A stretch of DNA of 64,000 nt from a virus (Duplodnaviria; Heunggongvirae; Uroviricota; Caudoviricetes), in IMG/VR virus record IMGVR_UViG_3300012943_000028, positions 240,642 to 304,641 of that record; one strand, given 5' to 3'. Position 1 is the stretch's first letter; each line of letters opens with the position of its first letter. The notes under the pieces were generated by a model. The model had not been told where the DNA came from. It worked only from the letters and a program-made list of their open reading frames with translations, and searched no databases. Positions 4,989 to 63,632 of this stretch are shown piece after piece. A program made the position numbers and the translations under genes.

Positions 4989-6363
4989 ACTTGAACTCCT
5001 TCAGCTCGCGACGGAACATCTCGTCGGCGGAATCCGCCTCGAGGGAGGCGAGGACCTTCTTCAGGTCGGCGACCTCGTTCTTGAGCTCGTCGATCTTGTC
5101 CTTCGTGAGGTTCCACATCTGCATCTGCAGCAGGCGGTCGTAGTCGACGAACTTGTTCTTGAGCAGCAGCTCGACAAGGTCGTCCTTCTTGCGATTGCGG
5201 AACTTGTCCACGTTGTCGAGGTAGAAGAGGATGAAGCGCAGCTTCTCGCTCATCCACCTGATGGACTCCTTGGTGGTGGCGATCTGCAGCTGCCGACGGT
5301 CTTCGTAGCGGGCGACTCGCCAGGTGGTGAAGCGCTCGATGATGTCCTCGACCGAGTCGAACCGCTTCAGCGTGCCGTCGATGTCCCAGAGCGTGTAGTT
5401 CTCCGTGTCACGCGCAACCAGCTTGAACTTGCGGTACAGCTCCTCGACGTCGAGGGCGGTGGTGCTGCGCGGGACGGTGATGGTGAAGTCGAACTTCGTC
5501 TCGTCAGTCTTGCCGATGTCGTAGTCCTTGACGAAGCCGCTCTCCTCGAGCTTGTGGAGCGTGTCCTTGAAGTCGTCGAGGTAGGTGCCGACTGGAAGTT
5601 CGGTCACCTTGATGGTGGTCGAGTTGACGACCTCCAGCTTGCCAGTGATCACGACCTGGCCCGTTTCTGGGTTGCGCTCGATCGTGCCGCTGAAGCCCTT
5701 GTACCAGGGAGTCAGCGTGCCGGCCTTCAGCTTCTTGCCGTCGAGGACCTTCAGCACGGCATCACGCACGTGCAGTGGGTGGTACGCCATGATCAGTGAG
5801 GCGTGACCAGTGCCGGTGCCGACCGAGCCGTTGATGAGGGCGATCGGCAGCAGTGGCGCGTACGTCTTCGGTTCGATCTTCTCGCCGTCCGTCTCGTTGT
5901 GCTCGAGGATGGCGTCGTCGGCCTTGTTGAAGAGAGAGCGGAAGTAGGGTGAGAGCTTCGTCTCGATGTACCTCGCGGCGGCAGGCTCTGCTGTCAGGCG
6001 ACTGCCGAACTGGCCTTCAGGTACGAAGAGGTTCATGTTGTTCGAGCCAGCGTAGTTCGTAGCGAGGCCGACGATGGTGCTCTGCATCGAACCGATACCG
6101 TGGTGGTAGTCGGTGCTGGCGGCGATGGCGGCGGCGAGACGCTCGACCTGGATCAGGCCAGCGGATTCACCACGAAGGAAGGTGCCATAGAGCGCCTTGC
6201 GCTGCGACGGCTTGAGGCCGTCCGTCAGGCGAGGGATCGAGCGAACGTTGTCGTACAGCGAGAACTCCTTGAAGGCAGAGTTCATGAAGTGCTGCGCGCG
6301 AATCTGGCGGCTGGCACGATATGCAGCGGAATCAGTCATCGTGTTGGTTCCCTTTGTTGCCAT
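4978..6363 (-). CDS. DNA topoisomerase II medium subunit (T4 gp52-like, GyrA-like breakage-reunion domain)
   Basis: Contains DGLKPSQRK (GyrA/ParC active-site region). The length and domain order fit the T4 gp52 family. The start is uncertain: ATG at 6363 (MATKG; leaderless, 6 nt after the -10) or 6339 (MTDSAAY, with an AAAGGGAA ribosome-binding site). The ORF-track start at 6399 lies upstream of the predicted promoter -10. Confidence 0.85.
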   Translation of the reverse strand: MATKGTNTMTDSAAYRASRQIRAQHFMNSAFKEFSLYDNVRSIPRLTDGLKPSQRKALYGTFLRGESAGLIQVERLAAAIAASTDYHHGIGSMQSTIVGLATNYAGSNNMNLFVPEGQFGSRLTAEPAAARYIETKLSPYFRSLFNKADDAILEHNETDGEKIEPKTYAPLLPIALINGSVGTGTGHASLIMAYHPLHVRDAVLKVLDGKKLKAGTLTPWYKGFSGTIERNPETGQVVITGKLEVVNSTTIKVTELPVGTYLDDFKDTLHKLEESGFVKDYDIGKTDETKFDFTITVPRSTTALDVEELYRKFKLVARDTENYTLWDIDGTLKRFDSVEDIIERFTTWRVARYEDRRQLQIATTKESIRWMSEKLRFILFYLDNVDKFRNRKKDDLVELLLKNKFVDYDRLLQMQMWNLTKDKIDELKNEVADLKKVLASLEADSADEMFRRELKEFKYVS

Positions 6364-8946: not shown

Positions 8947-9613
8947 CTTTCGGTACCTCAACGTATCCCACCTCGACACCAGGTATCGATGCATCGCAGA
9001 CGACTTGATCGGTTTCTTTCTTCAGTTCATCGAGCAGACCGAGATCGACCATGCGCTTGCACGAGTTGCAGCGACGGCACGACCAACCGTGCTCCATCGT
9101 TTCATGCGACTCGCACCACGTGACATGGTCACGCAGCTTCGAAGGCAGCCAGCTGTGGACGTGCTGCTTCGGAGATTTCGAAAGTGGGAAGGTTACCTCC
9201 CACTTTGGGTTGACGAGGAGCCCCTTGAAGCCGTCGAACATCGCCTTGATCTCATTGAGGTACGAGATGGCGCAGTCGTTCATGACGTAGCCGATGGCGA
9301 TCTCGGTGATCCCGTCTGGAAGAACGTGCATCACGACGGGCCAGAGGATGGCCTGCTGGAGGGCGACGTGGTTGCCTGAGGTCTTGACGTCGACCTTGAC
9401 GACGGTGCCCATGTAGTTGAAGAGGTCGCCGAACTCTGCCTTCAAGAGCGGCACGAGTCTCTCGATGGCTTCCTGCTCACGCTTCGACTGCACCTCGTTG
9501 TTCATGATCTCAACGTAGCCAGCTGAGACCTTGTACCCTTCAGAGAGGCGACAGTAGATGAGGTAGGTCGAGTCGAGACCACCGCTCCACAGCGTGAACG
9601 TATGCGACTTCAC
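8906..9613 (-). CDS. queC: 7-cyano-7-deazaguanine synthase QueC (PP-loop ATPase)
   Basis: N-terminal SGGLDS PP-loop motif and a C-terminal Cys cluster (CRRCNSC) typical of the QueC zinc site; ~235 aa. Confidence 0.8.
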   Translation of the reverse strand: MKSHTFTLWSGGLDSTYLIYCRLSEGYKVSAGYVEIMNNEVQSKREQEAIERLVPLLKAEFGDLFNYMGTVVKVDVKTSGNHVALQQAILWPVVMHVLPDGITEIAIGYVMNDCAISYLNEIKAMFDGFKGLLVNPKWEVTFPLSKSPKQHVHSWLPSKLRDHVTWCESHETMEHGWSCRRCNSCKRMVDLGLLDELKKETDQVVCDASIPGVEVGYVEVPKDEVKERAEIPASA

Positions 9614-59991: not shown

Positions 59992-60519
59992 TCAGAACCG
60001 AGTTGTAAGGCTCTTTAGAGCAGAGATGCTCTTGGTGTGATCCGTGTACTCGTGGAGGATGCCGAAGCCCATTCCGTGGTTGATCCATTCCTGGATGTTG
60101 CTGTGGCGGTCGTCAACCAGGACGTCACCAGGCTTTGCATGCTTCCACTTGTCAGCCGAGAACGGACCGAAGTTCACCTTGATGTCTGGGCCGAGGTGCT
60201 TGAGGGCCCAGTCAATCTTGTCCTGGTTTGCCGAAGGCATCTCGACACGACGTGGGATTGCAGTCAGAATCTCTACCTTGGCACCGGTAGCTAGAGCGGC
60301 TTCAACCAGCTCATGGCAGTATGGGGTTGGTTCGAGGTGCAGGTACATGTTCGGCACCGACTTGAGGAAGTCCCACATTTCTAGGTCGGCGCCTGGGCCG
60401 TCGGCGTGGATGAAGGTGCGGCCAAGGTTCTGAAGAACGAAGAGGTCGAAGTCGGCAAGCACTCCGTCCATGTCAAGGTAGACGATGTTGACCTTGTTGC
60501 TGAACGTTCTGCGTACCAT
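59992..60519 (-). CDS. HAD-family 5'(3')-deoxyribonucleotidase-like
   Basis: YLDMDGVLADF motif I and the ~175-aa size of NT5C-type nucleotidases. Confidence 0.65.
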   Translation of the reverse strand: MVRRTFSNKVNIVYLDMDGVLADFDLFVLQNLGRTFIHADGPGADLEMWDFLKSVPNMYLHLEPTPYCHELVEAALATGAKVEILTAIPRRVEMPSANQDKIDWALKHLGPDIKVNFGPFSADKWKHAKPGDVLVDDRHSNIQEWINHGMGFGILHEYTDHTKSISALKSLTTRF

Positions 60520-60665
60520 TAGCTTGCCTTCTTGATCTGTGAAAATGAAACGTGGCTGATCATCTTTTTCTTCTTGCTCGCCTTTGAAACGTGCGAGGCG
60601 GTACTGAGCACAGACGTCACCTGCTGGGAAACTACCCTCTTCAGCTTTTTCTGCTTCTCATCCAT
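60519..60665 (-). CDS. small Lys-rich protein (48 aa; below ORF-track cutoff)
   Basis: MDEKQKKLKRVV...; its ATG overlaps the TGA of the upstream small ORF (ATGGATGA); TAATG coupling to the nucleotidase gene. Confidence 0.25.
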   Translation of the reverse strand: MDEKQKKLKRVVSQQVTSVLSTASHVSKASKKKKMISHVSFSQIKKAS

Positions 60666-60804
60666 CTGTCGTCTTCACCTTGCCATCTTTCTTCTGCTTC
60701 CAAATTTGGAACAGACGCTCAGCCTCTTCCTGAACCTTCTTGTCACGAGCGATGGCGGCGGCCTTACGCTCTTCGAAGGTTCCCCTTCGTTTTGCTTCTC
60801 CCAT
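60658..60804 (-). CDS. small basic protein (48 aa; below ORF-track cutoff)
   Basis: MGEAKRRGTFEERKAAAIARDKK...; an AAGAGG ribosome-binding site lies 8 nt upstream. Confidence 0.3.
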   Translation of the reverse strand: MGEAKRRGTFEERKAAAIARDKKVQEEAERLFQIWKQKKDGKVKTTDG

Positions 60805-61638: not shown

Positions 61639-61964
61639 GCTACGGCCTTCGTGAGCTTCTTCCAGATGAGTTCGAGGACGTCGTTAGACACTGCATCTGG
61701 ATGGTCAGCTGAATAGTCGACACCACCACGGATGTCGTGCGTCTCTGGTTTGGTGCGCCAGCTTTCAGTCAGAGCATTCGTATGCCACAGACCGTAGGTG
61801 TTGCGAATCCACTGGCCAACGGAGTGGTGCATGGCACACACGTTGTCGAGAGAGTGTTTCGTAACCCATACCTTGTCTTCATCGCTCATCTTGCTGATGA
61901 CGTCATCCGCAATGCCTTCGATGGTGTTGATGTTGGAGAGTTCCATGTCTGTATTTATCTCCAC
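61635..61964 (-). CDS. hypothetical protein
   Basis: 109-aa ORF. Confidence 0.45.
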   Translation of the reverse strand: MEINTDMELSNINTIEGIADDVISKMSDEDKVWVTKHSLDNVCAMHHSVGQWIRNTYGLWHTNALTESWRTKPETHDIRGGVDYSADHPDAVSNDVLELIWKKLTKAVA

Positions 61965-62629
61965 AAAAGTTGGAAGTTACCTGCTAGAACTGCGTCAGTC
62001 GGTGCCTGCCGTTCAGTGCGGTGGTCTTTGACGATGTTGTCTTGGAAGCGATAGGTACGAATCTTGTCGCCCCTCTCACCACTTCCAACCTGCTGTTTTC
62101 TATCAACTGCCATTGTATCACGAACCTGTTGGTGTTGGAACTGGTTCAACCTGCGCAGAATTTCTTCCTTCGCCTGTTGAAGCGAGCTCTGTCTGCTCCT
62201 AGTTTGTGACGTGACAATGACTCCACTTTTGATGTGGGTGATGCGGCAAGAGTTTTGGTGCTTGTTGCGGTGTTGACCACCGGCGCCTGAGCCCGAGTAC
62301 CACTCTACCTTGAAGTCACGGTCATTGAATTCAACTCGCTTTGTCTCAAGCGGGTTGATGACGGCGACGGTCACGGTAGACGAGTGGACTCGCCCATTGC
62401 GTTCAGTTGGTGGTATGCGCTGGATGCGGTGGCCTCCGGCTTCTCCATCTAGAACATGGAGGTTGTCGCCTTCGACCTCGATCGTTGCTTCCCCAAGACG
62501 CGGGAAAGCGAGCCGATACTTTCAGCCGACCTTGAGAAGGTACTTCGTGTATGCGTTGGCCAAGTCTCTTACGAAGAGCTTGGAGTCTGCTCCGCCTTCT
62601 GCGGAACGAATTTCGATGATGCGCTTCAT
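61955..62629 (-). CDS. class I peptide-chain release-factor homolog (domains 2-4 only) interrupted by an in-frame TGA at 62522-62524
   Basis: Reading from ATG 62629 gives MKRIIEIRSAEGGADSKLFVRDLANAYTKYLLKVG-TGA-KYRLAFPRLGEATIEVEGDNLHVLDGEAGGHRIQRIPPTERNGRVHSSTVTVAVINPLE...SGSGAGGQHRNKHQNSCRITHIKSGVIVTSQ...IRTYRFQDNIVKDHRT. It has the GGQ motif and a PxT-type (PPT) codon-recognition tripeptide. The TGA aligns with the conserved Trp of GWK in RF1/RF2, and the frame is identical before and after it. Confidence 0.6.
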
Positions 62630-62877
62630 GTTCGCTCCTTTAGTCGTGGACATTCTTTGAGAATCACAATCCACATTTCTCGCGTTTGAGTAAATGCTTC
62701 TTGCTTTTGGTTGAGGGACTTCATCTGTTCGAGAAGCCCTGGGGATGGGGAAAGTTTCAAGCGCTTGAGCTCTAGGAGCTCGGCGTTGACTTGCGCTATG
62801 CGCTCACCTATCTCGGCGAGGCGATCGTCAATGCGTTGGAGTTGATCTATATCAACAGCTTGATGTTCATGTGGCAA
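62626..62877 (-). CDS. hypothetical coiled-coil protein
   Basis: 83-aa ORF directly downstream of the tRNA. Confidence 0.45.
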   Translation of the reverse strand: MPHEHQAVDIDQLQRIDDRLAEIGERIAQVNAELLELKRLKLSPSPGLLEQMKSLNQKQEAFTQTREMWIVILKECPRLKERT

Positions 62878-62889
62878 GATTCCGGTAGG

Positions 62890-62964
62890 TGGTGCTCGCT
62901 GTAGGGATCGAACCTACGACCTCTTCTATGTCAAAGAAGTGCTCTACCACTGAGCTAAGCGAGC
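62890..62964 (-). tRNA. tRNA-Val (anticodon GAC)
   Basis: Minus strand GCTCGCT-TA-GCTC-AGTGGTA-GAGC-A-CTTCT-TTGACAT-AGAAG-AGGTC-GTAGG-TTCGATC-CCTAC-AGCGAGC-A-CCA gives a full cloverleaf with canonical U8, GG in the D-loop, U33/A37, TTCGATC T-loop and an encoded CCA. Confidence 0.8.
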
Positions 62965-63455
62965 CCGAGTTTCTTCATCTTCTTCTTGATCCAGTCCTTC
63001 TTGACTGGGCTCAAGTGATCGTAAAACGTAATTCCATTCAGGTGATCAAGCTCATGCTGAAAGCAGACTGCGTCAATGCCATCAAGCGTAAGCTCAAACT
63101 CTTCAAACTTGTCGTCACGAGCCTTCACCTTTACCCAGCTTGGGCGCTTCACGATGGCAAACAGGCCAGGGAAGCTCAAGCAGCCTTCGTTGAAGGGCAC
63201 GATCTCTGTCGATGCTTCAACGATCTCTGGGTTGAAGAACACACGGCGCTCCATCTTTCCACCCATGGAACTTGTGTCCATGATGAAGATGCGGAACGGG
63301 TATCCAATCTGAATGGCCGAAAGCCCAATGCCATTCTGGCGCTTCATCACCTCAAACATCTCAACGATCGTCGCCTCATCAACGTTAGTGATGCGGGAAA
63401 CCGGGTTGCTGATCATCTTCAGCGTCTTGTCTGGGTAGTGAAGAACTTTCATCAA
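62955..63455 (-). CDS. def: peptide deformylase
   Basis: GIGLSAIQIG (motif 1), EGCLSFPG (motif 2) and QHELDHLNG (HExxH motif 3). Confidence 0.85.
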   Translation of the reverse strand: MMKVLHYPDKTLKMISNPVSRITNVDEATIVEMFEVMKRQNGIGLSAIQIGYPFRIFIMDTSSMGGKMERRVFFNPEIVEASTEIVPFNEGCLSFPGLFAIVKRPSWVKVKARDDKFEEFELTLDGIDAVCFQHELDHLNGITFYDHLSPVKKDWIKKKMKKLGLA

Positions 63456-63556
63456 GGTGGTGCCCTCACACAGAATCGAACTGTGGTTTCAGCCTTACCA
63501 AAGCCGCGTAATAGCCACTATACTATGAGGGCATAATCTCGTACATCTCTATTTAT

Positions 63557-63632
63557 TGGAGCGCCCAGTGGGAATCGGACCCACGACCTTCGCCTTCGGA
63601 TGACGACGCTCTATCCACTGAGCTACAGGCGC
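63557..63632 (-). tRNA. tRNA-Arg (anticodon CCG)
   Basis: Minus strand GCGCCTG-TA-GCTC-AGTGGATA-GAGC-G-TCGTC-ATCCGAA-GGCGA-AGGTC-GTGGG-TCCGATT-CCCAC-TGGGCGC-T-CCA gives a cloverleaf with two G-U pairs in the acceptor stem. The T-loop has C at position 55 (unusual). Confidence 0.7.

Follow-up and report, generated by a model that had tools for sequence, protein, structure and literature searches.

The 64,000-nucleotide stretch analysed here (hereafter the window) corresponds to positions 240,642 to 304,641 of the IMG/VR record IMGVR_UViG_3300012943_000028, a virus of the class Caudoviricetes. Towards its end, on the minus strand, lies a short gene that resembles the gene of release factor (RF) 1, and its reading frame is crossed by a TGA at codon 36. 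The features of this gene are given below in the order in which they would be translated.

62627-62640, minus strand: Shine-Dalgarno (SD) sequence AAGGAG at 62635-62640 with the ATG start six bases after it, at 62627-62629 (sequence).
61955-62629, minus strand: short RF1-like gene of 224 codons, with the recoded one counted as sense, comprising RF domains 2-4 without domain 1 (translation).
62585-62587, minus strand: Asp15 in AEGG-x-D, placed by hidden Markov model alignment to Thermotoga maritima RF1.
62522-62524, minus strand: recoded codon TGA, codon 36, context GGC UGA A, at the conserved tryptophan (Trp) of RF1 and the only internal stop in 224 codons.
62492-62533, minus strand: codons 33-46, candidate readthrough context with the lowest synonymous-site diversity of the gene.
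62405-62413, minus strand: tripeptide PPT, residues 73-75, in HRIQRIPPTE, an RF1-type (PxT, Gln70) codon-reading loop.
62273-62281, minus strand: GGQ, residues 117-119, the peptidyl-tRNA hydrolysis motif.
61955-61957, minus strand: the gene's own stop, TAA (translation).

When TGA was read as Trp, the translation matched the C-terminal part of the Pfam family PCRF (E = 2.9e-21, profile positions 103-194) and the entire RF-1 domain (E = 3e-19). Among the NCBIfam models, the top score was that of prfA (190.8 bits, profile positions 107-332 of 347), with prfB behind it at 124 bits, whereas prfH (TIGR03072) reached 56.4 bits against a cutoff of 166.65 in a match that covers the GGQ domain only. 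The lack of domain 1 keeps the prfA score under the equivalog cutoff of 400 bits. When a family profile was compared with PDB sequences, RF1 scored 197 bits, RF2 116 bits and a PrfH chain 51 bits, and residue 36 fell opposite the Trp of 'KGW' in T. maritima RF1. Moreover, the AlphaFold 2 model of a 68% identical homologue (predicted local distance difference test score 86.6) superimposes on ribosome-bound RF1 with a template modelling score of 0.91 and a root-mean-square deviation of about 2.3 Å. Q70, P73, P74 and T75 as well as the GGQ motif are invariant across the family alignment (alignment A1), and all sequence determinants that discriminate between RF1 and RF2 (PxT, Gln70, HTST) are RF1-like. 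The initial annotation, made from the letters alone, had proposed domains 2-4 of an RF1-like class I release factor with the motifs SGSGAGGQHRNK, IRTYRF and PPT (IPPTE), together with a single in-frame TGA at codon 36 on the conserved RF Trp; every one of these elements was recovered in the translation, and the domain matches, the profile scores, the PDB alignment and the structural model point the same way. With domain 1 missing and a score below the cutoff, the phage protein is best regarded as an RF1-derived paralogue and not as a prfA equivalog.

One residue departs from the compared release factors. The GG-x-E position, which sits at the tip of the codon-reading helix, holds Glu in these factors (GGEE in T. 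maritima RF1, GGTE in Bryobacter RF2) and an invariant Asp in all short phage RFs (D15 in alignment A1, D16 in alignment A3). This Asp may change stop-codon specificity.

From viral contigs, 80 loci encoding relatives of 57-85% amino-acid identity were recovered, many of them on contigs of 100-520 kb, and the homologous codon is TGA in 80/80. After deduplication, 79 distinct nucleotide sequences were retained, each with exactly one in-frame TGA, always at the homologous codon (79/79), while the two remaining Trp codons of the clade genes are invariably TGG (160 in total). The ratio of nonsynonymous to synonymous substitution (omega) was calculated by the Nei-Gojobori method over 191 pairs, with medians of 0.10 for codons 1-35 and 0.13 from codon 37 to the end. 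The synonymous divergence (dS) between the window and its closest relative (L001) amounts to 1.23 downstream of the TGA, so that synonymous sites are saturated. Since the TGA is invariant despite this saturation and omega is close to 0.1, a recent nonsense mutation or decay does not account for it. An independent JGI contig from another sample, about 99% identical with a few substitutions, carries the same GGC TGA AAG, which excludes a sequencing error at codon 36.

Thus, the UGA at codon 36 is a conserved and selected feature of the gene, well outside what chance would produce. The initial annotation had hesitated between gene-specific recoding and a recent nonsense mutation, and had suggested a comparison of relatives for TGG or TGA at this codon and a check for error; conservation and omega speak for its first option, and the TGA found in 79/79 distinct sequences disposes of the second. 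Nor is purifying selection missing from the downstream part, which it had named as one mark of a pseudogene: omega is 0.13 past the TGA. An in-frame stop that is conserved over diverged homologues, with purifying selection on both sides, is the pattern by which programmed readthrough is recognised, and we consider it very probable that the gene is under programmed recoding rather than in decay.

Translation of the window gene starts 35 codons ahead of the TGA. The start is ATG in 84/84 family genes, an AGGAG-like sequence precedes it in most of the eight examples viewed, and the gene's own stop is TAA in 80/84. Database proteins of 222-225 residues with W36 turned out to be genetic code 4 calls whose underlying DNA carries TGA. 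Matches of 167-184 residues look like calls that start past the TGA, which was confirmed for P0002, P0093 and P0120. Re-initiation after the TGA was considered and rejected: no start codon is conserved there, and the gene callers choose differing, non-homologous starts in these three entries. In the window gene, the first downstream start candidate (GTG at 62374) falls past the PPT loop.

We then asked how TGA is used elsewhere in the window. A simple self-trained gene model yielded 88 genes, of which 54/88 end in TGA, 26/88 in TAA and 8/88 in TAG (61% UGA and about 30% UAA), with many ATGA overlaps; TGA is therefore a real stop outside the RF gene, as the initial annotation had held from such junctions. 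The topoisomerase II subunits, the helicase and open reading frames (ORFs) with weak matches to virion proteins are uninterrupted by TGA. A genuine TGA terminator even stands 105 nucleotides upstream of the recoded one, at the end of the preceding ORF.

62626-62877, minus strand: upstream ORF of 83 amino acids, with its stop TGA (62626-62628) overlapping the RF start as ATGA (sequence).

Both TGA codons presumably share one mRNA. The ATGA overlap at the RF start was also found in 22 related loci. No other convincing in-frame TGA flanked by same-frame coding-like sequence was found in a scan of the 64-kb window, and the in-frame TGA appears to be specific to this gene, with no change of the code. 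Separately, a TGA at 60658-60660 (minus strand) ends a 48-residue ORF (60658-60804) and is in frame with an NT5C-like 5'-nucleotidase (59992-60519) 46 codons downstream; it is probably there by chance, as a differently framed ORF overlaps the gap.

The nucleotide context of the codon-36 UGA was compared over the 79 distinct sequences. The base that follows is A in 55, G in 18, C in 6 and T in none, whereas T follows 17/54 of the genuine TGA stops of the window (Fisher p = 4e-8 for 17/54 versus 0/79, the sequences being related and not independent). U at position +4 makes the strongest termination context, while UGA followed by C is weak (PMC5289835). Hence the codon-36 context appears depleted of the strongest termination signal and suited to leakiness. 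The preceding codon encodes Gly (GGN) in 78/79. Moreover, normalised synonymous diversity falls to 0.37-0.46 at codons 33-46, against a gene mean of 0.78, with its minimum just 3' of the TGA; this trough suggests a nucleotide-level requirement directly 3' of the stop.

Searches were extended beyond the clade of the window. A protein search led to three 'uncultured phage' genomes of 485-642 kb, LR756504, LR756502 and LR745208, whose short RFs are distant but have the same architecture; these genomes apparently belong to the huge phages surveyed by Al-Shayeb et al. A profile-based scan added 80 more loci of short RFs. Their early codons carry a variety of stops and frameshift sites, as follows.

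LR756504: TGA at codon 44.
LR756502: TGA at codon 52.
LR745208 (L084/L089, about 1590-1615 of L089): +1 frameshift at GGAGGGGU-CUU-UGA-C, which is the prfB cassette.
L103, L109, L111, L114-L118, L122-L129: two in-frame stops, codons 39 and 52.
L105/L106: two in-frame stops, codons 46 and 54.
L119/L120: TGA at codon 44 plus TAG at codon 52.
L101, L132: TAG in place of TGA.
L152: +1 frameshift at GGAGGGGG-CUU-UGA-C.
L172: +1 frameshift at GGGAGCGU-CUU-UGA-C.
L130: +1 frameshift at GGAGGCGU-CUU-UAG-C.
L090: +1 frameshift at CUU-UAA-C, with no clear SD-like element.
L121: +1 frameshift at CUU-UAG-C, at codon 52 and thus not in the Trp36 column, with no clear SD-like element.
L146: TGA at codon 39 together with a frameshift at TAG, codon 54.

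Distinct genes were tallied from the reading of each locus, and double stops lying close together were corrected by hand. About 109 of some 137 genes have a single TGA, about 14 have two TGA and 1 has TGA plus TAG; a single TAG occurs in 2, a +1 frameshift in 7, and both TGA and a frameshift in 1. Only 3 of the roughly 137 (L133, L134, L141) lack any recoding signal. In the AT-rich clades, two in-frame TGA are the usual state, at codon 39 (the Trp column) and codon 52; the latter position is not Trp in other clades, and the conserved Trp of 'HRW' remains TGG. The full prfB-type feature, an SD-like element followed by CUU-stop-C, was found in L084, L152, L172 and L130. In the multiple alignment, the CUU of the LR745208 cassette occupies the Trp36 column, and the cassettes of the other frameshift lineages share this Trp36/UGA column, L121 excepted. 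The likeness to prfB autoregulation that the initial annotation had pointed out is thereby strengthened, as sister lineages carry the true CUU-UGA-C +1 cassette at the same column. What the family has in common is an early stop that has to be bypassed, and not a Trp codon as such, which is what one would expect of a regulatory device gauging how efficient termination is.

In LR756504, a 49-kb stretch contains 149 TGG against 24 in-frame TGA, about half of the latter in short or multiply interrupted, spurious-looking ORFs, so that this genome likewise seems to use the standard code. Reassignment of TGA throughout the genome was thus rejected both for this region and for the window, in which TGA is the main stop. 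In L112/L113, the reading frame collapses from about codon 65, after NE(W), with both early TGA intact; this breakdown may stem from an insertion, from an intron or from genuine decay.

The reading that we favour is programmed readthrough of UGA as a sensor of termination. The predicted product is an RF1-type release factor devoid of domain 1, the full-length synthesis of which would require readthrough of the UGA at codon 36. Near-cognate tRNA-Trp (anticodon CCA), the classical route of UGA leakiness, could read this codon and would thereby restore the ancestral Trp and a normal RF fold. Termination and readthrough would compete at codon 36, making the yield of the full-length protein inverse to UGA-termination activity. 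Host RF2 being the canonical reader of UGA, the codon would sense host RF2 activity and would act as a sensor of termination capacity, or attenuator, following the same logic as the UGA of the prfB +1 frameshift site. From its PxT loop with Gln and its GGQ motif, the product is predicted to release peptides at UAA and UAG, and a plausible benefit would be that it relieves the host factors of UAA/UAG termination during infection by a phage in which 61% of the genes end in UGA. A form of load balancing may be conjectured, in which limiting RF2 leads to more phage factor, which then takes over termination at UAA. The sensor logic is supported by the distant short RFs, which carry either a prfB-type cassette at the Trp36 column or early TGA, one or two of them, at positions that are not homologous. 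We lean, with moderate confidence, towards this reading as a whole, including RF2 as the factor sensed.

Several points weigh against it. An RF1-type factor can't directly relieve a shortage of UGA termination, and what the phage would gain by tying its synthesis to RF2 insufficiency is a conjecture. One large subclade dominates the synonymous-site trough, and RNAalifold, run over four spans, found no conserved RNA structure around or 3' of the UGA. The window covers 64 kb of a probably much larger genome, elsewhere in which a suppressor tRNA or a late code switch may be encoded. Lastly, some relatives with the same PPT tripeptide use UAG or UAA as the sensor codon and some genes combine UGA with UAG, and autoregulation by a factor of broad specificity fits such mixed sensor codons at least as well as cross-regulation through RF2.

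This is the main rival: a short RF of broadened specificity (omnipotent, or at least UGA-reading) would terminate at its own codon-36 UGA and so limit its own synthesis, as RF2 does. A single self-sensing factor reading all three stops would account for every sensor type of the short-RF superfamily, including the genes with both UGA and UAG (TGA 44 and TAG 52 in L119/L120, TGA 39 and a frameshift at TAG in L146), and every short RF has the Asp at the tip of the codon-reading helix where the compared RF1 and RF2 have Glu. With 61% TGA stops, the phage would find a UGA-reading factor more useful, and the toxicity of overexpressed RFs gives a reason for self-limitation (PMC12421855). Yet each RF1/RF2 discriminator is RF1-like, from PxT, Gln70 and HTST to the prfA score (190.8 against 124 bits for prfB), the sensor in the clade of the window is UGA in 79/79, with no UAG or UAA among them, where RF1-type autoregulation would predict the reverse, and UGA at a Trp codon is the simplest leaky stop that restores the native residue. 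We hold this autoregulation to be rather unlikely, and are similarly doubtful of its extension, namely that the short RFs of huge phages and chromosomal islands form an unrecognised class of self-limiting release factors of broadened specificity, with early UGA, UAG and UAA all autoregulatory. If this were true, the phage would install a homeostatically controlled termination factor able to replace both host RFs. The UGA might also be a fixed attenuator that keeps a harmful domain-1-less RF very low through a constant readthrough of a few percent, without sensing anything. The drop in fitness upon RF overexpression (PMC12421855), the two serial UGA of some clades, which would multiply the attenuation, and the lack of a conserved stimulatory RNA structure in the RNAalifold analysis agree with this, but a weak ribosome-binding site would have sufficed, yet strong AGGAG sites and ATG starts were kept, and the UGA was repeatedly replaced at the same column by prfB-type frameshift cassettes, a known regulatory device. 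Such an attenuator seems improbable to us; it is also hard to separate from a sensor, since leaky stops inevitably respond to RF activity.

A code switch during infection is less probable still. Here, a suppressor tRNA encoded outside the window would make UGA a Trp codon late in infection, and the RF1-like factor would maintain termination at UAA and UAG, a scheme already proposed for the TGA-recoded Jade phages. TGA-recoded phages do have RF1 genes beside suppressor tRNAs (Borges et al., 10.1101/2021.08.26.457843), the gene adjoins a large tRNA array extending past the edge of the window, and suppressor tRNAs may evade detection. However, the window has no tRNA with a UCA anticodon, and none was found near the RF gene across the 94 loci scanned (83 of the clade of the window, with more than 600 tRNAs, and 11 further loci), TGA is the main stop of the window, where the ORFs with weak virion-protein matches are uninterrupted, and in LR756504, which likewise carries a recoded short RF, TGG (149) far outnumbers in-frame TGA (24, about half of them in spurious-looking ORFs) over a 49-kb region. 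Moreover, the RF1 gene of the Jade phages is itself in the standard code (10.1101/2021.08.26.457843). A pseudogene, a sequencing error or a selenocysteine codon can be set aside with near certainty. A single internal stop is usual for pseudogenes and UGA can encode selenocysteine, but the TGA is invariant in 79 sequences, omega is about 0.1 on both sides, no other disruption occurs and the independent contig reads the same. As for selenocysteine, no conserved hairpin of the kind of the bacterial selenocysteine insertion sequence follows the UGA, codon 36 is the position of the conserved RF1 Trp, and the local hairpin at 62487-62509 of the window is not conserved (fold z-score -1.3, not significant).

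Programmed UGA readthrough in this gene can be set beside several known systems. Autoregulation of prfB at CUU UGA C is the textbook case; in Escherichia coli prfB, the frameshift site is at codon 26. As in prfB, a class I RF gene is gated by an early UGA at which termination and recoding are opposed, and sister lineages of the phage gene share the cassette itself, an SD-like GGAGGGG followed by CUU UGA C. The window gene differs in that GGC UGA A is read in the same frame, with no frameshift, in an RF1 lineage, and in that its site lies in domain 2 whereas that of E. coli prfB lies in domain 1; by canonical specificity the phage product should not read its sensor codon, and the loop may thus be one of cross-regulation and not of autoregulation. 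In phage Q-beta, the normal tRNA-Trp inserts Trp at a UGA at a low level and so extends the coat protein to A1. The likeness would be a phage product that relies on the decoding of UGA by tRNA-Trp. But Q-beta makes a C-terminally extended minor protein besides a major one, while the product ending at the UGA of the phage RF gene is a 35-residue fragment with no plausible function, the complete protein would arise only by readthrough, and the UGA takes the place of a conserved Trp.

PrfH (RF-H) likewise lacks domain 1 and keeps the GGQ domain; its similarity to the phage protein is weak (56 bits against a cutoff of 167 in NCBIfam; 51 bits against 197 for RF1 in the PDB comparison), and the RF1 codon-reading loop of the latter is intact. 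The Jade phages encode an RF1-type factor within a translation or tRNA module, as here, but they reassign TGA genome-wide in late genes with a suppressor tRNA and a tryptophanyl-tRNA synthetase, and keep their RF1 in the standard code (10.1101/2021.08.26.457843), whereas the window uses TGA as its main stop and carries TGA in the RF gene itself. In plants, eRF1 is reported to be autoregulated by stop-codon readthrough and to sense termination efficiency (PMC5397192); there too, readthrough is linked to the production of a release factor, although that system is eukaryotic and unrelated in sequence and works through nonsense-mediated decay and a 3' extension, while the phage stop is internal and near the N-terminus. 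The phage gene is thus neither a prfA equivalog nor PrfH, and neither a code-4 phage gene nor a selenoprotein gene.

RF1 and RF2 genes have been described in huge phages (PMC7162821), and a survey of more than 12,000 bacterial genomes (2025) gave no evidence for programmed recoding in prfA (PMC12421855). Within an incomplete coverage of the literature, we found no earlier account of phage RF genes with conserved in-frame stops or frameshift cassettes. To our knowledge, prfB has until now been the one release-factor gene associated with programmed recoding. In-frame UGA readthrough as a regulatory recoding of an RF1-lineage gene, in phages, would thus be new. It would place a conserved regulatory stop in an RF1-lineage gene over more than 100 diverged phage and island copies, and the readthrough, double readthrough and +1 frameshift found at or near one site would form an evolutionary series linking the sensor types. 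A further implication is that large phages may gauge how much capacity for termination the infected cell has, and tune it. The early stop explains why short RFs are routinely mis-called as truncated ORFs, pseudogenes or 'code 4', and the family offers synthetic biology compact natural contexts for UGA readthrough and frameshifting.

The gene is also found in bacterial genomes. In a scan of prokaryotes, with one genome per species, three cultured Alphaproteobacteria were found to carry the short RF with its codon-36 TGA, namely Jiella sp. LLJ827 (L175), Thalassospira xianhensis MCCC 1A02616 (L176) and Gemmobacter caeni DSM 21823 (L177), and these copies open the gene to direct experiment. Metagenome-assembled genomes of Sphingomonas, Sphingobium and Pseudobdellovibrionaceae carry the homologous in-frame TGA, at codon 36 except in Sphingobium (codon 33). 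The G. caeni copy stands inside an array of 8 tRNAs, in what is likely a prophage or island; by eye, it adjoins ORFs resembling Thg1, Pth2 and YqeY. The Thalassospira copy is in an apparent genomic island with a methyltransferase-like ORF.

In the window, the short RF gene belongs to a translation-related neighbourhood, the other members of which lie at 62890-63632.

62890-62964, minus strand: tRNA-Val(GAC).
62955-63455, minus strand: peptide deformylase.
63458-63532, minus strand: tRNA-Thr(GGT).
63557-63632, minus strand: tRNA-Arg(CCG).

These three tRNAs adjoin the RF gene and are the edge of a tRNA array that continues beyond the window. At its 3' end, the peptide deformylase ORF shares 10 nucleotides with the predicted tRNA-Val on the same strand (62955-62964). 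A split-off RF domain 1 was considered for the helical 83-residue ORF upstream of the RF gene and rejected, as it has no PCRF match and is not conserved in relatives. The tRNA-Val was the sole match from the window in a DNA-level search of known phage genomes, and a phage protein search gave matches to the short RF of at most 41% identity; therefore, the collection searched holds no cultured phage of this clade.

Among the relatives, the RF gene stands beside arrays of up to 23 tRNAs. The closest relative has 17 tRNAs upstream of it, with a tRNA-Trp(CCA) and no UCA anticodon, and tRNA-Trp(CCA) occurs near the RF gene in 14 of the 83 clade loci. In L007, L009, L011, L032, L040 and others, this tRNA-Trp shows, by eye, an apparent U11-A24 pair in the D-stem, which is not diagnostic; the Hirsh UGA-suppressor form of E. 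coli tRNA-Trp has U11-A24 instead of U11-G24. On a 363-kb contig (L067), a tRNA with a CUA anticodon, of the amber-suppressor type and labelled 'Pyl' by ARAGORN, lies at 9139-9215, about 3.5 kb from the short RF. In L021, a tmRNA gene (5660-6123, tag ANNEMFALVA) is located directly downstream of the short RF gene.

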